The translations under genes were made by a program, and so were the position numbers. Source: Candidatus Omnitrophota bacterium (GTDB lineage: Bacteria; Omnitrophota; Gorgyraeia; 2-02-FULL-51-18; JAGOUK01). Taken from it: 60,469 bases of DNA. Below are positions 3,463 through 50,995 of this stretch, piece after piece. Numbering within the stretch: the stretch's first letter is position 1; every line of letters begins with the position of its first letter. The stretch lies in NCBI GenBank assembly GCA_047639455.1, contig JBLINS010000004.1, positions 1 to 60,469 on the forward strand, in the 5' to 3' direction. The notes below the pieces were generated by a model. It was not told the DNA's origin and made no database searches. It worked only from the letters and a program-made list of their open reading frames with translations.

Positions 3463-4140
3463 TTAATTCTTTGAAAACCTAACCTGTATCATGGACGCCA
3501 ATTCTCTATCCACAACAAATTGACTTTGGCCCATTTGAAACAAAAAACCAGGTTTGCGCTTAATCAGTTTAATAGGCAAGCCTGGCAAAACACCCATAGC
3601 CGTTAATTTATTCAATGTATCTTCCTGCTCAGTCTTTAAATAAGCAATCAGACCCGTTTCGCCTAATTCGCATTCAGTCAAATTACGGACCAATTTGCGC
3701 GGCATGCGTTTTTCATCCCGGCAACAGTCCCCTTCTGGAATAGGCTTGTCATGTGGGCACATGGTTGGATGACCTAATAAAGTGCAGATATTCTCAGCAA
3801 CTTCTGTTTGCAATAAATGCTCCATCTCACAACCCAATTCATGATTTTTATCTCCACGCACATGCAAAACATCAGCAAAGAGTTTTTCGGCCAAACGATG
3901 GCGTCTAACACAAGATCTGGCTTCAAGGCGACCATGATTCGTAATTGTTAAAACACCGTCCTTCCACACAGCCATATTTTTTTCCAATAGTTCTTTCGTA
4001 ATCGGTTCTGCATCGCCACCTGTGTAAGACCAAGCCAAACCCTTTTCTTCGGTTTCAACCCAATAATCCTCTAATATTTCATGAGCCAGATCAGATACCC
4101 CTATTTTCTCGTGATTGTGTTCAAGAGTGTTTTGCTCCAT
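3463..4140 (-). CDS. DtxR/MntR-family metal-dependent repressor with C-terminal FeoA (SH3-like) domain
   Basis: RRHRLAEKLFADVL, CEMEH, LLGHPTMCPHDKPIP dimerisation motifs; FeoA-like LTAMGVLPGLPI. RBS aagggag. Confidence 0.9.
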   Translation of the reverse strand: MEQNTLEHNHEKIGVSDLAHEILEDYWVETEEKGLAWSYTGGDAEPITKELLEKNMAVWKDGVLTITNHGRLEARSCVRRHRLAEKLFADVLHVRGDKNHELGCEMEHLLQTEVAENICTLLGHPTMCPHDKPIPEGDCCRDEKRMPRKLVRNLTECELGETGLIAYLKTEQEDTLNKLTAMGVLPGLPIKLIKRKPGFLFQMGQSQFVVDRELASMIQVRFSKN

Positions 4141-4340
4141 CTTTTGCTCCCTTCGCTAACTTTAGCAGCCAAATTCTTTAACCATACAATTTCTTGCGGA
4201 TTATCATACCCGCACTTTGGGCATTTAAGCATGCCACAACCACTTGGAGCTCCAGCACTATCGGACTGATGACAGCTATGACAACCACCTACAGCTGCCG
4301 TTGCTTCTGTGAATGACGTATTGCAATACGAGCAGTTCAA
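4101..4340 (-). CDS. Small Cys-rich protein (7 Cys) between feoB and the DtxR-family gene
   Basis: CxxC, CxxC, C, CxxC pattern; overlaps the feoB stop; no signal peptide. Confidence 0.7.
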   Translation of the reverse strand: MNCSYCNTSFTEATAAVGGCHSCHQSDSAGAPSGCGMLKCPKCGYDNPQEIVWLKNLAAKVSEGSKRWSKTLLNTITRK

Positions 4341-6379
4341 AGCTGTATACCTGTAAGGTTTAATATGCCATTAAGCACGTAACCGATAAAAAATGCGAAT
4401 GGAAAAATAAAGGCCGCCATGCCCATAGCCATGGCTCCACCGCGCTCTTTCCACATAACAGCAAATTGAGCTATGCAAGGCACGAATAGAGTCAAGACAA
4501 CCGTTGCAATCAACATGCCATTACCACTCAAAGTACCTTGATTGGCCATATCGAATAAACCGGCTGCACCAAAGTCGCGCCTAAAGAAACCATATAGGAA
4601 CACTGGCGCAACACCCTCGGGCATACCCACCCATGTCACGGGATAAGCGATGAGCTTGACTCCCATTTCAAAAAGACCTGTTAATTTACCAAACCAAATA
4701 ATGACTGATGCATACAAAAAGATTGGCACAATTTCAATAAAGTACCAAACCATGCGTGAATAAGTTTTGGTAAAAACATTCACAACACTTGGCATTCTAA
4801 GTGGGGGCAATTCCATAAAGAAAGATGTGCCCTCGCCCTTAAAGACTTGCTTTGCCATCCAACCACTTATAAGGAAGACAACGCCCATGGTAAGGGCCCA
4901 CAAAACAAGCATTTTGGGACTATTACCCAATATACCAAGAATAACACCCAATTGAGCTGAGCAAGGAATGGTTAAAGACAAAAGAAAAGTCGCAATAATT
5001 CTTTCCTTTTTAGACTCTAATGTACGCGTTGTGATGGTAGCCATCGTATCGCAACCGAATCCAAGCGTTATTGGAATAACAGCTCTTCCACTCAAACCTA
5101 TGGACTTAAACATCTTATCCACTAACATGGCCAAACGTGGCAAATAACCTGAATCCTCAATCATCGAAAAGGCTATAAAGAACGTAGATACAATTGGCAA
5201 AACAATCGCAAAGGCATATCGCACACCCAAAGTTATAATGCCGTAATCACCTGCGAATAAATCATAAAACATATTATCGCCAAACAAAAAGGCGAAAAAA
5301 GATTGAACGGGAGGGTTGATATACTGACCAAAAATAACCCCTTCAATAAAATTAACGCAAGTGCCAGCGCCAAATTCACCCACAAATTTGAATAAACCAA
5401 AATAAAGCACAGCTAGTAATATCGGCACGCCAAAAATTGGATGGATTAATAAATGGCTCAAATGCTCTTTCCAGGCCGGTTCTTTATTGGCCTCTTGTAC
5501 AAATTTGAGATGTTCAGCGATTAATTTGCGTGTGACCTTAAGGCGGTCTTGAATAAAAATTTGGGCAGATTGTCTAAAGGACAAGTCGCCCATAATCTCT
5601 TTAATTTTGTCGGACCCTATGCGCTTTTCTACTTTCTCTATCACTTCTGAATCACCTTGAGCAATTAATGCGGCAACTGTTCGATTCGAAACCTCATAAT
5701 CACCATCTAAAAATTCACAAATATTAGCTATGCGGTTTTCAATTTCGGGTGAATAATTTGTTTTGAACATATTGAATTTATAACGTTTGTCAGCCACCTC
5801 AACAATACGCGCTTTAAGGTTTTGCATACCTCGGCCGCGTGTAGCTACAGTTTCAATGACAGGTATGCCCAAATCATGTTCCAAGTGCGCCACATCTAAT
5901 TGCATACCGCGAGATTCTAATTCATCATATAAATTCAATACTAGAATAACGGGATGCCCCGTCTCTATAAGCTGTAATGTAAGCGGCAACATGCGCTCGA
6001 GATTCTTAGCATCCACAACATGTAATATGCAGGCGGGTATTTGTTCTAATAAATAATTACGGGCAACACTCTCTTCGCCTGTTATGGGTCGCATAGAATA
6101 CATACCAGGTGTATCAATAACTGAGAATTCATGATGACCGCCAATGCGCAATTTGCCAGAAGCTATTCCGACAGTTGTGCCTGGGTAATTACTAACAGTC
6201 ACATAACTATTTGTGAGCGCATTAAAGATGGAGCTCTTACCAACATTGGGATTTCCGACAAGAAATATTTTGCCCGTTTTTGAAGCACATTCATCATTGT
6301 GATCGTGGTTATTCTTAACTGTTTTAGCGGTGTTTACTTCAAGGTCTTCATTTTGCGCATTGGAAACGGGTTGGCTCAT
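4337..6379 (-). CDS. feoB: Ferrous iron transporter FeoB
   Basis: G1 GNPNVGKS, switch VSNYPGTTV, G3 DTPG, gate motifs LGFGC and LFVPCIA, multi-TM C-terminus. Confidence 0.97.
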   Translation of the reverse strand: MSQPVSNAQNEDLEVNTAKTVKNNHDHNDECASKTGKIFLVGNPNVGKSSIFNALTNSYVTVSNYPGTTVGIASGKLRIGGHHEFSVIDTPGMYSMRPITGEESVARNYLLEQIPACILHVVDAKNLERMLPLTLQLIETGHPVILVLNLYDELESRGMQLDVAHLEHDLGIPVIETVATRGRGMQNLKARIVEVADKRYKFNMFKTNYSPEIENRIANICEFLDGDYEVSNRTVAALIAQGDSEVIEKVEKRIGSDKIKEIMGDLSFRQSAQIFIQDRLKVTRKLIAEHLKFVQEANKEPAWKEHLSHLLIHPIFGVPILLAVLYFGLFKFVGEFGAGTCVNFIEGVIFGQYINPPVQSFFAFLFGDNMFYDLFAGDYGIITLGVRYAFAIVLPIVSTFFIAFSMIEDSGYLPRLAMLVDKMFKSIGLSGRAVIPITLGFGCDTMATITTRTLESKKERIIATFLLSLTIPCSAQLGVILGILGNSPKMLVLWALTMGVVFLISGWMAKQVFKGEGTSFFMELPPLRMPSVVNVFTKTYSRMVWYFIEIVPIFLYASVIIWFGKLTGLFEMGVKLIAYPVTWVGMPEGVAPVFLYGFFRRDFGAAGLFDMANQGTLSGNGMLIATVVLTLFVPCIAQFAVMWKERGGAMAMGMAAFIFPFAFFIGYVLNGILNLTGIQL

Positions 6380-6403
6380 ATTTTGTCTTTTCTCAATTAG
6401 GCT

Positions 6404-6856
6404 TTAATGACTATGTGGCGATTGATTGCATTTTTGACAAATGCCATAAACAAATAAACGGTGTTGGTTAACGGTGAATCCTTCTGCCTGTGTACTTTTT
6501 TCATAATAACGTGCGAGCTCTTTACCAGCAAATTCAGTGATTCGACCGCATAAATCGCATATCATATGATCATGTTCTTTATGACCATAATGATGCTCAT
6601 AACGCATAGCTTTTTGACCAACATTAAAACCTTCGCCAATGCCTGAATCGCATATAAGTTTCATGGCTCTATGCACAGTTGCATTACTAACCTCAGGGTA
6701 AGATTCCTTAACCTTTATGGCTAATTCATCGACAGTCATATGCCCCTCTTGTGTAAGGAAGACTTCTAGGACTTGATCGCGCTGCTTACTAAAGCGGATT
6801 TGATTCCTTTGTAGGTATTCTTCAAATTCTTTTTTTGGTTCTGCTAATTGACTCAT
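6404..6856 (-). CDS. fur: Fur-family transcriptional regulator
   Basis: HMTVDEL, ATVHR, HDHMICDLCG and CQKC motifs; directly upstream of feoB. Confidence 0.9.
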   Translation of the reverse strand: MSQLAEPKKEFEEYLQRNQIRFSKQRDQVLEVFLTQEGHMTVDELAIKVKESYPEVSNATVHRAMKLICDSGIGEGFNVGQKAMRYEHHYGHKEHDHMICDLCGRITEFAGKELARYYEKSTQAEGFTVNQHRLFVYGICQKCNQSPHSH

Positions 6857-6903: not shown

Positions 6904-7051
6904 TAAGTTAAGTGCTTATTTTACACGAACTCAAATAGCTGTCAACTTAATTCTGCAGAATTATATCAAAAAAATCACACGCATGCACGCGCCAACATAA
7001 TCAACAATTTCTACAATTTATTAATTCACACTATAGCGAGGAAGAACCATT

Positions 7052-7211
7052 GTCATTGCCGGCAGGCAGGCGGGCGGAACGCGGCAATCTAGAGCTAATA
7101 ATGGCCAGTTTTGCTATATCGGATGAGGCTCAAATATTACTGTTTTGGATTGCGCCCGCGCCTGTTCGTGGCACGCCCTCCTTATTCGTCGGACACTCAC
7201 TCTCCCAATGA
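7052..7211. repeat. REP-like inverted pair (gtcattgc...gcaatct / ggattgc...caatgac family)
   Basis: Same terminal words as the copies at 9640, 22820, 32817, 33002 and 44855. Confidence 0.65.
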
Positions 7212-7252
7212 CGTGTGGGCTTTCCATGTATGTGCGCGCGTCTAAAGGGGAC

Positions 7253-9609: not shown

Positions 9610-9802
9610 TCAGGTCGTGTCATAAAGCTCATTAGCCCCGTCATTGCGAGACGCGCGTAGCAAGCGCCGCGGCAATCTAAGGTTAAATTAGCACCGGGTG
9701 AAAATATTAGTAAAGTTGAATAGTTAATAGTTTTTAGATTGCCACTTCGCTTGCTTCGCGCTCATCGCAATGACGGCAGTGGTACGTTATGACACGGCCT
9801 GA
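9610..9802. mobile_element. ~190-bp MITE/REP-doublet composite with 16-bp terminal inverted repeats (copy A)
   Basis: tcaggtcgtgtcataa ... ttatgacacggcctga enclose a gtcattgcgag...gcaatct / agattgc...cgcaatgac pair. Homologous copy at 32974-33163. Confidence 0.7.
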
Positions 9803-9812
9803 ATGACGCGTA

Positions 9813-22770: not shown

Positions 22771-22817
22771 GCTTTAAACTCGCGTCATTACACGAAATGC
22801 GTCCTGGCTTTCACTCC

Positions 22818-22892
22818 ACGTCATTGCGAGGAGTGCGTAGCAACGACGCGACAATCTAGACTGAGATTGCTTCACTTCGCTCGTAGTGACGG
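22818..22892. repeat. Compact REP-like doublet inserted between mamP and the mamL-like gene
   Basis: cgtcattgcgag...acaatct-agactg-agattgc...cgtagtgacg. Confidence 0.7.
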
Positions 22893-31828: not shown

Positions 31829-32005
31829 TTATTTCTTGCTCTTTTGGCCCTTGAGTTGCAACCCGCTGGATACAGCCACCAAACCACCAATTAATAAGAA
31901 CAAGGGCACAGATCCTCTTAAAAAATCACCAAAGTTTTCCCACCAACCAATAATCCCTAGAACACCTAAAGCTAAAGCTATCAAACCACCGATGATATGT
32001 GACAT
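31829..32005 (-). CDS. mamI: Magnetosome membrane protein MamI (58 aa, missed by ORF track)
   Basis: Manual translation MSHIIGGLIALALGVLGIIGWWENFGDFLRGSVPLFLLIGGLVAVSSGLQLKGQKSKK has the MamI G...WW....FLRG.VP..L..G.VA..SG signature; RBS ggag. Confidence 0.93.
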   Translation of the reverse strand: MSHIIGGLIALALGVLGIIGWWENFGDFLRGSVPLFLLIGGLVAVSSGLQLKGQKSKK

Positions 32006-32008
32006 TTC

Positions 32009-32470
32009 TTAATCTCCTTGAATTAACTTAATGGGAGTTAGTCCCTTGTTTATATTTTTATGATCAGTTTTTGCAGATTTATTCGAAATATTGCTTTTAA
32101 AAGAGGCTAAATATTTGCCTGATGCAAATAAACCTTTTTGAAATAGGCCATTGGACTCTTTTTTGCTATTAATATGGGCTGCAATGCGATTTGGCCGGCG
32201 AGTTTTTTTGGGAATAATAAACTTTTTTTGCTGTGCCATTTCTTCAGCCAATATTTCGACAGTGCTTTCTTTGAGGCGATTTAATAAAGCTTGGTCTGCC
32301 ATTTTGCGTTTGGACATCACGCGCAACAAAGTACTCACTTCTATACGTCTGTGGCCACCCAAAGTTTTGATGGATTTTAATAAATTGCGGTCAGCCCAAT
32401 TCATTACAGTGAAGCGCGAGACATTACATAAATTGGCAGCTTGAGTGGTGGTGATATACTTTTGGTTCAT
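32009..32470 (-). CDS. Excisionase/MerR-like (HTH_17, BldC-like) DNA-binding protein
   Basis: YITTTQAANLCNVSRFTVMNWAD...KTLGGHRRI; first gene of the minus-strand MGC run, 3 bp before mamI. Confidence 0.85.
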   Translation of the reverse strand: MNQKYITTTQAANLCNVSRFTVMNWADRNLLKSIKTLGGHRRIEVSTLLRVMSKRKMADQALLNRLKESTVEILAEEMAQQKKFIIPKKTRRPNRIAAHINSKKESNGLFQKGLFASGKYLASFKSNISNKSAKTDHKNINKGLTPIKLIQGD

Positions 32471-32587
32471 TAATAATCCTGTTTACGAAGAGCTCTTTAG
32501 CTCAAGTCTTATAACTGAAACCTAGTCAAAAATATTAAGCGGTACACAAATCCAGTGCAGAATTTACCATAACCCCCTATGAGCGTC

Positions 32588-32654
32588 AACAGCTTCCTGC
32601 TATTTCCTGCTATAACAGCTTCCTGCTATTTCCTGCCCTGCTATTTCCTGCTAT
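32588..32654. repeat. Short direct-repeat array (TTCCTGCTAT, ~6 cores) upstream of the MGC
   Basis: ttcctgctat at 32594, 32604, 32620 and 32645 plus partial cores at 32630 and 32637. Confidence 0.85.
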
Positions 32655-32816
32655 ATAGAGTAGAGCCTTATCAAAATTAATCAAATGTAGAAAATGTAGA
32701 CGCCTCCATTACCCTCTTTTTTCTACACTTGCTTGTTTGTGTTCAATGCTAATTGGTTGGTTGGGGTGTCGTTCAAGTGTCGCTTCAGCCGTCATTAGAC
32801 TATGTCACAACACCCC

Positions 32817-32942
32817 GTCATTGCGGGTGTATTATGGCCAAGCACGGGCACAATCCAGTAACAACAAATGATGCGAATGTATCGCATTTCCATAGCTAGC
32901 ATCTAGCGCACCTTCAGATTGCTACGCACTCCTCACAATGAC
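32817..32942. repeat. REP-like inverted pair
   Basis: gtcattgcggg...caatcc / agattgc...cacaatgac. Confidence 0.6.
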
Positions 32943-32973
32943 GAGGTTTTCTCATGCTACGCACTCCCCACAA

Positions 32974-33163
32974 TCAGACCGTGTCATAAAGCTTATAGCC
33001 ACGTCATTGCGAGGCGCGCGTAGCAGCAACGTGGCAATCTAGTGTTAATTAAATACAGGTGTCAAATGTAAATAAAATTGACTAGGCATTAGCCTTAGAT
33101 TGCCACTTCGCCGCTACCGCGCTCATCGCAATGACGGTGCTGGTACGTTGTGACGCGGTCTGA
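32974..33163. mobile_element. ~190-bp MITE/REP-doublet composite (copy B)
   Basis: tcagaccgtgtcataa ... ttgtgacgcggtctga; internal sequence clearly homologous to 9610-9802 and in the same orientation. Confidence 0.7.
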
Positions 33164-33449
33164 ATGACGAGGTTTTCTTCTGCTATGTGGCCTCGCACCA
33201 GCACCACGGTGTAACGACCTCCTAGAGCAGGCTTTTGCTGTGGGATCTACAAGGGTCTCGTCCCCTCGACCCATTCGTAAATAGGCCTTTGGCCACTCAC
33301 CGTCGCTACGCTCCTCAGGGTGACATACGCAAGCAGTCTTTGATTGCGTTAATTACAATTATAAAGACTTATACATAAATTAGCTTGCATGCTTAGCTTG
33401 TATACATTAGAATTGGCACAAATTTAAATATTGGAGACATGGAGAGATT

Positions 33450-34142
33450 ATGGAAATTCAAGACCTCGTTAAAACATTTAAACAAAATACTCGCGCGTGT
33501 GCTGCAGAATTCATTGGTGTCTTTGCATTAGTCTTTGTAGGCATGGGTGCGATTGCATCGGATATGATTACCGGTGGTCAAACAACTCTTTTGGGCGTTG
33601 CCCTAGCGCATGGCTTGACTATTGCTGTCATGGTCACGGTATTCATGAATGTCAGTGGCGGCCATCTCAATCCCGCTGTCACAATTGGTATGTTAGTCAC
33701 TAAGCGAATTGATGGTGTATTGGCCATTGCATATATCATTGCTCAATATCTAGGCGGTTTGGCGGGTGCAGTAGCCATTCAAACCATTATCGTTGGTGAA
33801 GTGCCGTTTGGAACCGGCGTCCCCGCTTTGGCTAGAGGCATATCGCCTGTTGTTGGTTTGCTTCTAGAAGTCATACTCACATTCTTCCTCGTGCTAAGTA
33901 TATTTGGCACAGCTGTAGATAAAAGCGCTCCTAAGATGGGCGGTTTGTTCATTGGCTTAACCGTGACATTGGGAATTCTTGTCGGCGGCCCCATATCGGG
34001 TGCGGCCATGAATCCAGCGCGTCACTTAGGTCCTGCTATTTTTGGTGGGGGTTTGGGCAGTGCTTGGCTTTATACTCTAGGACCCATTATCGGTGGTGTC
34101 ATAGCAGCTTTCGTTTACGAACAAGTCATCGAAAAGAAATAG
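33450..34142 (+). CDS. MIP-family channel (aquaporin)
   Basis: Two NPA motifs (HLNPAVT, AMNPARH), six TM segments. Confidence 0.95.
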   Translation: MEIQDLVKTFKQNTRACAAEFIGVFALVFVGMGAIASDMITGGQTTLLGVALAHGLTIAVMVTVFMNVSGGHLNPAVTIGMLVTKRIDGVLAIAYIIAQYLGGLAGAVAIQTIIVGEVPFGTGVPALARGISPVVGLLLEVILTFFLVLSIFGTAVDKSAPKMGGLFIGLTVTLGILVGGPISGAAMNPARHLGPAIFGGGLGSAWLYTLGPIIGGVIAAFVYEQVIEKK

Positions 34143-44854: not shown

Positions 44855-44985
44855 GTCATTGCGAGGCCGTTTTGTGGCCGCGGCAATCTAAGCCCCGTAA
44901 CTAATCAATTTTATTTATATTTGACACCTAATATCTAATCTTACACTAGATTGCCGCGTTGCTGCTCCGCGCAACTCGCAATGAC
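44855..44985. repeat. REP-like inverted pair
   Basis: gtcattgcgagg...ggcaatct / agattgcc...ctcgcaatgac. Confidence 0.75.
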
Positions 44986-45056
44986 GTGATGACTACTCCG
45001 CGCCTGTCTGCCGACAAGCAGGCAACGTTCACCGGTCGTAGTCGAAAGATCTTATT

Positions 45057-49942: not shown

Positions 49943-50960
49943 TAGGGGTCAAGTCTTTGGTTTTAGTATAGATTGCGCTAATTTCTCCCAAATTTCAACG
50001 TCACCCTTCATCATGTAAAAGGCGCTGCCAATGGTGTTGTAGCTTAGTCCGCCAAGTAAAGATCCAATATGCTTGTATGTTAGCTGACATTCGTTCCTGA
50101 GCATGTATATGGCCAATTTTCTAGGTATATTCCTTTTAGAAGAACATCTGCCCGTGATATGTGTTGCTGCAACATTGTAATGGGCGGCTATCAACGAAAT
50201 GATACTCTCAGGACTAGGAAGATCTTTTATTTCGTTTAGCTGTGGAATTTCTCTCTGATGTTTTACTTGTTTCTTATAGAAAGTAGATTTAATTTTTTCC
50301 ATAAATGCCTTTGTCCCCATAACCGACGGCCATTTACTTGATTTCATAACCTTGAGTAGCGTTTCGTCTTCATCCTCGTTTACAAATTTATCCAACTCTT
50401 TTTTAGCAGCAGACTCATACTTTGAGAACATGGACAGCACTGTTGATGTCGTCAGCCATTTGGGCTTCTTATTCAAAATCATATAGCATCTATGACTTCC
50501 ATGCATGTCTTCTATGGCGCAGTTAAACTTACGTGCCCTAACAGCATTCAAATGAATATATCTAACGAGTGTCGTCAGATAGCTATCTTTATCGATGAGA
50601 ATCGATTTATATCTGCCTTTGAATAAGGCCCCGTCCCTATTATGGCGTCGATTATACCGTTGAGTATAGATTCCATCGATATGTCGCATGGCTCGTGATA
50701 AGTTTCCTAGAGGGGTTTCTATGATAATGTGGTAATGATTACTCATTAAATTGAATGCATGCACTCTTATCTTCCACAAGTTTACACTTTCTTCCAATAA
50801 TTTTAGAAAAGCATTGTAGTCGCTTTCGCCATTAAAGATAATGCGACGATTTAATCCGCGGTTCATGATGTGATAAAAAGCATTGGGATATTGAATTCTT
50901 AGCGGTCTGGACATGTGGCTATGATACCATATTTTATGATAACCAAAGACTTGACCCCTA
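49943..50960. mobile_element. RAYT-type element bounded by perfect 20-bp terminal inverted repeats
   Basis: taggggtcaagtctttggtt (49943-49962) and aaccaaagacttgaccccta (50941-50960). Confidence 0.85.
49949..50914 (-). CDS. REP-associated tyrosine (Y1 HUH) transposase with C-terminal DnaA-like HTH
   Basis: MSRPLRI...YHIMNRG, HUH motif NHYH, FKGRYKS, catalytic Tyr in VRYIHLN; C-terminal PRKLAIYMLR..CQLTYKHIG. Real start probably ATG 50914. Confidence 0.9.
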   Translation of the reverse strand: MSRPLRIQYPNAFYHIMNRGLNRRIIFNGESDYNAFLKLLEESVNLWKIRVHAFNLMSNHYHIIIETPLGNLSRAMRHIDGIYTQRYNRRHNRDGALFKGRYKSILIDKDSYLTTLVRYIHLNAVRARKFNCAIEDMHGSHRCYMILNKKPKWLTTSTVLSMFSKYESAAKKELDKFVNEDEDETLLKVMKSSKWPSVMGTKAFMEKIKSTFYKKQVKHQREIPQLNEIKDLPSPESIISLIAAHYNVAATHITGRCSSKRNIPRKLAIYMLRNECQLTYKHIGSLLGGLSYNTIGSAFYMMKGDVEIWEKLAQSILKPKT

Positions 50961-50995
50961 AGTCTAAGTTTGAGTTGAGAAATTGATAGTTGCAT

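Follow-up and report, generated by a model that had tools for sequence, protein, structure and literature searches.

The window analysed here, a stretch of DNA of 60,469 nucleotides, carries a magnetosome gene run on its minus strand. The first gene of this mam run (32009–32470, minus strand) encodes a BldC-like winged helix-turn-helix (wHTH) protein of 153 amino acids, the short form of its family, and is preceded by a Shine-Dalgarno-like AGGA (32477–32480, minus strand) located 6 nt before the ATG. Only 3 nt separate its stop codon from mamI (31829–32005, minus strand), which encodes a 58-amino-acid protein matched by the NCBIfam MamI model with an E-value of 1e-16. mamI is followed by a 95-aa open reading frame, mamE, and then a co-directional mam run of about 25 kb. 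The run after mamE encodes a PDZ protein, magnetochrome proteins, MamP, MamM/B, MamA, MamQ, MamN, a MamO-Cter protein, further CDF transporters and a MamK-like actin, and ends in a fur-feoB-feoA group, all on one strand. The initial annotation had placed the wHTH gene first in the mam run, which is confirmed by this order. Upstream of the gene lie, in the sense direction, a tandem pair of 9-bp direct repeats, an array of 10-bp repeats and a predicted promoter.

Several other features of the cluster were recorded. The segment 26311–29333 (minus strand) encodes two paralogues of 406 and 590 amino acids that are rich in Asn, Gln and Met and have zinc-ribbon-like motifs; their counterparts in relatives contain a magnetochrome (MCR) domain. 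A GspE/PilB gene flanking the cluster has its best matches in Omnitrophota, at 61–66% identity. Dispersed REP/MITE-like palindromic elements with the motifs CGTCATTGCGAGG and GCAATCTAG occupy several intergenic regions of the cluster, namely 32780–33330, 7040–7250, 9616–9808, 22816–22859 and 44905–44988. The window also encodes a transposase of the Y1 (IS200-like) type with a fused DnaA_C HTH domain (49949–50995, minus strand), which may be a REP-associated transposase that spreads these palindromic repeats.

On profile matches and predicted fold, the protein at the head of the run is a BldC/Xis-type wHTH protein with no recognisable effector domain. It was matched by Pfam HTH_17 at 38.1 bits (cut-off 27) and by TIGR01764 'excise' at 32.9 bits (cut-off 28.8). 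The score of 36.9 bits for NCBIfam HTH_BldC (NF033787) is under the curated cut-off of 77, and the Pfam MerR score of 25.0 is under its cut-off of 28.2. None of the NCBIfam magnetosome models was found to match the protein, even at E-values up to 10. The wHTH domain comprises residues 1–55 (32306–32470, minus strand), as delimited by an AlphaFold model (AF2), the alignment with BldC and the invariant columns of the family, and contains the wing motif T36-L-G-G-H40-R-R42. The pLDDT of the model exceeds 90 over these residues. They are followed by a poorly conserved helix (residues 60–81), a disordered linker and, at the C-terminus, a conserved helix with the signature GLYxSGKYxA. This C-terminal motif, GLFASGKYLASFK (residues ~108–126; 32093–32149, minus strand), was delimited from the family alignment and is a helix in the AF2 prediction; its hydrophobic moment gave no distinctive signal of a membrane-targeting amphipathic helix.

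The closest structural relative is BldC of Streptomyces venezuelae and S. coelicolor. Among PDB entries, the family profile ranks the BldC–DNA complexes 6AMA and 6AMK first (hmmsearch E-value of 1e-8), and they are also the top Foldseek matches, with an rmsd of 1.0–1.1 Å over 49 columns, 35% identity and a TM score of 0.8–0.88 on the target; the next Foldseek neighbours are the third-ranked Pukovnik Xis (PDB 4J2N) and RacA. The proposal of the initial annotation that the gene encodes an effector-less MerR/excisionase-type wHTH protein is thus borne out in the form of the BldC/Xis type, with BldC as the best PDB match by both sequence and fold. BldC subunits bind head-to-tail and occupy 9-bp direct-repeat sites with the consensus AATTxxxxC (PMC5859096). 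The head-to-tail interface of BldC packs F21, V23 and W31 against L11, I40, T42, L43 and G44, and Arg30 contacts a guanine in the major groove (PMC5859096). The statement made at the outset that BldC/Xis-type proteins assemble head-to-tail on direct repeats is accordingly sound (PMC5859096).

How far do the DNA- and subunit-contacting residues agree with those of BldC? H46, R47 and R48 of the minor-groove wing of BldC correspond to H40, R41 and R42, giving the same TLGGHRR wing, and G38, G39, H40 and R42 are invariant in family alignments of 19 and of 16 sequences. The head-to-tail interface is kept in part: six of its eight hydrophobic residues are retained (V17, W25, I34, T36, L37 and G38), and these are mostly invariant in the family. 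The changes relative to BldC are F21 to C15 and L11 to Y5, and the R22–E16 salt bridge is replaced by N16/Q10. The base-reading Arg30 of BldC is replaced by Asn24, which is near-invariant in the family, and Lys26 by Phe20, whereas Arg19, invariant in the family, is missing from BldC. The two proteins also differ in size and scope. BldC consists of 68 amino acids and of the wHTH domain only and controls a developmental regulon, whereas the Omnitrophota protein has a linker and a conserved C-terminal motif, belongs to a family whose long forms contain a Cys-rich insert, and is tied to one gene cluster.

Relatives of the protein were collected by an exhaustive HMMER search, which returned 382 proteins, including a set of 97–156 aa that aligns end to end with the C-terminal motif; a word-index homology search with the protein alone had recovered only the protein itself. 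Context look-ups, together with a scan of the GTDB species genomes, gave 24 distinct related loci, many of them from the survey of magnetotactic bacteria of Lin et al. (2020). They comprise 21 labelled Omnitrophota/Omnitrophica MAGs, one unlabelled ENA metagenome scaffold (L004), one Phycisphaerae and one Planctomycetales locus. A Logan contig (L001) is identical to the window and therefore uninformative for comparison. The relatives are distant: full-length identities are 27–41%, rising to at most 63% within the wHTH domain. This alignment assigns the protein to an unnamed family characterised by a wHTH domain at the N-terminus, a variable linker and a C-terminal GLYxSGKYxA motif.

Synteny in these loci is strongly conserved. 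In 22 of the 24, the HTH gene is followed by mamI, mamE, the PDZ gene and the MCR genes, either directly or after a FixC/FixX-like pair. An ApbE flavin-transferase gene usually lies before the HTH gene in relatives (L002–L026), about 1.0–1.4 kb upstream. The window has neither ApbE nor the FixC/FixX-like pair at the HTH gene and contains only a weak ApbE-like fragment at 33–476. The HTH gene is the sole conserved DNA-binding gene in the neighbourhood of the related loci. As read from gene order, it is the conserved leading gene of the mamI–mamE operon in magnetotactic Omnitrophota, and the earlier suggestion of a gene dedicated to the magnetosome cluster is supported by this synteny. The literature searched on Omnitrophota magnetosome clusters does not mention the HTH gene.

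Two variants of the domain architecture were observed among the homologs. Long-form members (P0005, P0007 (L004, 2241–2975), P0151, P0157–P0159, P0042, P0048, P0160, P0162 and P0164–P0167) contain an insert of about 70 amino acids with seven conserved cysteines between the wHTH domain and the C-terminal motif. The insert has the pattern CWE...HNCxxC...CF...QC..DCxxCxY..YYP, is missing from the window protein and was not matched by any Pfam model. To judge from its cysteine pattern, it could act as a metal, Fe-S or redox sensor. P0002 (279 aa) and P0003 (251 aa) each contain four tandem BldC-like wHTH domains in a single chain and resemble covalent versions of a head-to-tail multimer.

Twenty loci share an 18-bp element, the tandem 9-bp repeat (TTCAACAAT)x2, no more than 320 bp upstream of the mamI-preceding HTH gene. 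The element is present with two or fewer mismatches in 17 loci. Its information content is close to the maximum at exactly these 18 bp and falls to almost zero on either side. It is followed by a strong promoter of the form TTGACA-16/18-TATA(A/C)T, mostly at a distance of 31–39 bp (range 18–63 bp). In about 14 loci, a second copy of (TTCAACAAT)x2 precedes ApbE. With a shifted frame, the 9-bp unit reads AATTTCAAC, which fits both the AATTxxxx(C) consensus of BldC and its 9-bp period. The candidate site is thus, like a BldC site, a tandem direct repeat, and its two units correspond in number to the two-unit BldC dimer site described at whiI (PMC5859096).

The counterpart of this element in the window is the tandem 9-bp direct repeat GTCTACATT-TTCTACATT (32684–32701, minus strand), a candidate operator. 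It has the period, copy number and orientation of the family element and was picked up independently by TRF. The pair differs from the 18-mer consensus at five positions: an A-to-T change is present in both halves, and the other changes also occur in relatives. The closest HTH domain is that of L004, yet this locus is without a clean tandem pair. Downstream of the pair is a predicted sigma-70-type promoter, TTGACG-17-TAAATT with a TG-extended -10 box (32561–32589, minus strand), and equivalent promoters are present in relatives. Sequence inspection between the 9-bp pair and the array gave no hexamers at an acceptable spacing, and an alternative promoter there was rejected. The distance from the pair to the -35 box is 94 bp, and subtraction of the 61-bp array leaves 33 bp, the usual spacing in the family.

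Additional copies of the 9-bp unit are present in the window. A single inverted half-site copy, TTCTACACT (32721–32729, plus strand), lies 20 bp beyond the pair, faces away from it and points to the divergent aquaporin gene (33450–34142). A degenerate tandem pattern has two matches in the window against 0.18 expected. A second operator-like pair, ATCAACAAT-TTCTACAAT (7000–7017, plus strand), is intergenic and inverted, upstream of fur-feoB. The fur, feoB and dtxR-feoA group (3463–6856, minus strand) forms the far end of the mam run and has a near-consensus promoter, TTGACA-16-TAAAAT (6945–6918). The pair at 7000–7017 is located 54 bp upstream of this promoter, beyond a terminator-like hairpin (6977–6992). 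It was set aside as weak evidence for a regulon, given its inverted orientation and the hairpin that separates it from the fur promoter.

The 10-bp array (32594–32654, minus strand) consists of five ATAGCAGGAA units on the sense strand, one of them with a GCAGG duplication, and one GCTGTT spacer. Exact copies of TTCCTGCTAT, its plus-strand form, start at 32594, 32604, 32620 and 32645. The remaining unit (32630–32644) reads TTCCTGC-CCTGC-TAT and is a copy with an internal 5-bp duplication. On the sense strand, the region reads ...TCTACATTTTCTACATTT gattaattttgataaggctctactctat ATAGCAGGAA ATAGCAGG(GCAGG)AA ATAGCAGGAA gctgtt ATAGCAGGAA ATAGCAGGAA gctg TTGACG-17 nt-TAAATT, so that the second of the five units carries the extra GCAGG and the array ends 4 bp from the -35 box. 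Start-to-start spacings of the units are 10, 16, 10 and 15 bp on the plus strand, and a 26-bp super-unit, composed of two units and AACAGC, is duplicated exactly. The initial annotation had described about six cores, several of them 10 bp apart; the repeats are real, but there are five units, and only two of the four intervals measure 10 bp. Its placement of the array 120–185 bp upstream of the gene agrees with the measured 124–184 bp upstream of the ATG.

Chance clearly does not account for four identical 10-mers in a stretch of 61 bp. A scan for the array unit yielded no further exact copy of TTCCTGCTAT in the 60-kb window, and matches with one mismatch occur elsewhere at chance level. The array has no predicted fold (z = +0.99) and no Rfam family. 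An RNA element in the intergenic region was also rejected: the sole Rfam match was a sub-threshold, spurious hit of a miRNA family to a palindromic hairpin at 32996–33144. A metagenome scan for the array 20-mer ATAGCAGGAAATAGCAGGAA returned nine contigs with GC contents from 34% to 62%. These contigs were rejected as relatives of the array; the 20-mer lies in unrelated contexts (a ribosomal protein operon, fabF and a phage-like region) with no homology to the window, and its occurrences are regarded as independent or due to chance.

The ATAGCAGGAA array is private to this genome: all 24 related loci have kept the HTH gene, but none has the array. The initial annotation had taken the 10-bp array as the site of the regulator, which does not agree with its absence from 24 of 24 relatives, in which a repeat with a 9-bp period is conserved instead. 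The arrangement of HTH gene plus array that was to be sought upstream of mamI in relatives was found in its first part only, with the gene kept and the array not, and this counts partly against the array proposal. The array (32594–32654) is therefore probably not the operator of the family. It is probably a recent, lineage-specific, perfectly homogeneous tandem expansion, for which an origin by slippage is suggested, and the expansion can be explained by duplications of 10, 26 and 5 bp. The perfect identity of the units would also be expected from strong selection for a repeated binding site.

Taken as a whole, these data suggest a BldC-like, probably autoregulatory regulator that acts on the candidate 9-bp pair, with the array as a private expansion in the operator–promoter spacer; we give this reading a probability of about 0.55. 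In this mechanism, the HTH protein would bind the tandem 9-bp pair head-to-tail as a dimer. The pair GTCTACATT-TTCTACATT lies upstream of the predicted promoter, which would drive the gene of the regulator itself and the downstream mam genes. Because the pair does not overlap the core promoter, an activating or architectural role is favoured, and positive or architectural autoregulation would be more likely than simple occlusion. The array would have been inserted between operator and promoter, stretching the spacer from the ~33 bp typical of the family to 94 bp, and may lengthen a protein filament, serve as a site for another factor, or determine spacing or phase. A more far-reaching version, which we regard as tentative, can also be formulated. 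A dedicated master regulator of the BldC type, encoded by the first gene of the cluster, would control its own expression and switch on mamI–mamE and the neighbouring ApbE gene through a phylum-wide 9-bp operator, the long forms would sense iron or redox state through the seven-cysteine insert, and a hypermutable 10-bp minisatellite would tune or phase-vary control in this genome.

What else could the array be? The HTH protein might polymerise on the ATAGCAGGAA units, in which case the array would be the switch itself or an operator extension along which a filament spreads from the 9-bp pair to the promoter. The array directly abuts the -35 box, and BldC is known to tolerate loose sites and to form filaments that span varying numbers of repeats (PMC5859096). 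An AT-rich tetramer and a G/C block alternate in each unit, and the plus strand reads ATTTCCTGC, a loose fit to AATTxxxxC that matches ATTTTCTAC of the window at seven of nine positions on the opposite strand. This last similarity was discarded, since it is not significant once every frame and both strands are taken into account. The best-fitting orientation is, moreover, opposite to that of the conserved pair, the period is 10 bp with irregularities of 15 and 16 bp rather than the 9 bp of BldC, and the unit lacks other copies in the window as well as counterparts in the related loci; polymerisation on the array is thus rather unlikely. Alternatively, the array may be the site of a different regulator, for example a response regulator of the OmpR/PhoB type, or a phased A/T-tract bending module, providing a lineage-specific input to the mam promoter. 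Its units lie at about -40 to -100, the classical activator zone, response regulators of this type use direct repeats next to the -35 box, and three hybrid histidine kinases are encoded in the window. No DNA-binding response regulator was identified there, however, and the unit sequences are free of degeneracy, the irregular spacings put them on different faces of the helix, and the motif occurs nowhere else in the cluster, all of which makes this explanation quite improbable.

Other explanations concern the protein rather than the array. Deletion of MamR, an HTH_17/Xis-like protein of Magnetospirillum, alters the number and size of crystals, and the protein has no demonstrated regulatory role (PMC3905215). 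With this precedent, and with a conserved C-terminal motif that suggests a partner, the Omnitrophota protein may be a structural or accessory magnetosome protein that uses its wHTH domain for nucleoid tethering or protein contacts, the 18-mer being read by another factor. The 18-mer could indeed be bound by a different factor common to Omnitrophota. The DNA-contacting wing is, however, invariant, as is most of the oligomer interface, a BldC-type 9-bp tandem repeat precedes the gene in 20 loci, and no other DNA-binding gene is conserved nearby; an accessory role is therefore considered unlikely. The alternative raised in the initial annotation, a recombination-directionality factor left from island integration, has fared worse. 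Integrase arm-type sites, such as those of lambda, are ~10-bp direct repeats, so the array could be read as such sites; the excisionase model TIGR01764 scores above its cut-off, and the adjacent intergenic region is filled with repetitive elements. Yet the 60-kb window contains neither a recombinase of the tyrosine or serine type nor a tRNA gene, and the array is not conserved. Since the gene occupies the same place upstream of mamI in 22 of 24 loci, it is a conserved cluster gene and not an integration relic; the relic reading is largely refuted and retains a very small probability.

Comparison with other known systems places the proposed regulator more precisely. MamR and the Omnitrophota protein are both small, HTH_17/excisionase-like and encoded by genes within a magnetosome cluster (PMC3905215). 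MamR has about 72 amino acids, is encoded between mamQ and mamB and has no known operator, whereas the Omnitrophota gene lies upstream of mamI at the cluster head; the likeness is one of HTH class. In the window, mamQ is preceded by mamA and followed by a mamN-like gene, with no adjoining HTH gene. Xis-type factors (lambda Xis and Pukovnik Xis, 4J2N) share the wHTH class and bind direct repeats cooperatively, a property that is only a candidate one in the Omnitrophota protein. They have a partner integrase and an att site, unlike the Omnitrophota gene, whose position in a biosynthetic cluster is conserved. Classical MerR proteins have a coiled-coil dimerisation helix, an effector domain and a palindromic operator within a promoter spacer of 19–20 bp. 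In contrast, the region after the wHTH domain is not conserved here, the candidate site has directly repeated units and lies upstream of the -35 box, and the promoter hexamers are 17 bp apart. NsrR, Fur, OxyR and Crp are, like the protein described here, candidate controllers of magnetosome gene transcription, in their case for the mam operons of Magnetospirillum. These regulators are global and encoded outside the cluster (PMC11014258), whereas the Omnitrophota protein is encoded within the cluster and conserved with it.

Little is known about the transcriptional control of magnetosome genes. In Magnetospirillum, it was not until 2024 that a first direct regulator of mamAB was reported, namely NsrR, a global sensor of NO (PMC11014258), and our literature search returned no case of a regulator gene lying inside a magnetosome cluster. 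The present analysis shifts the candidate binding site from the 10-bp array to the 9-bp pair. It pairs a conserved protein with a conserved 18-bp candidate operator across more than 20 uncultured Omnitrophota genomes. This pairing can be tested in vitro and in E. coli reporters without culturing Omnitrophota. If true, it would mean that the unusual head-to-tail mode in which BldC occupies 9-bp repeats also operates in a further phylum and in the formation of an organelle.
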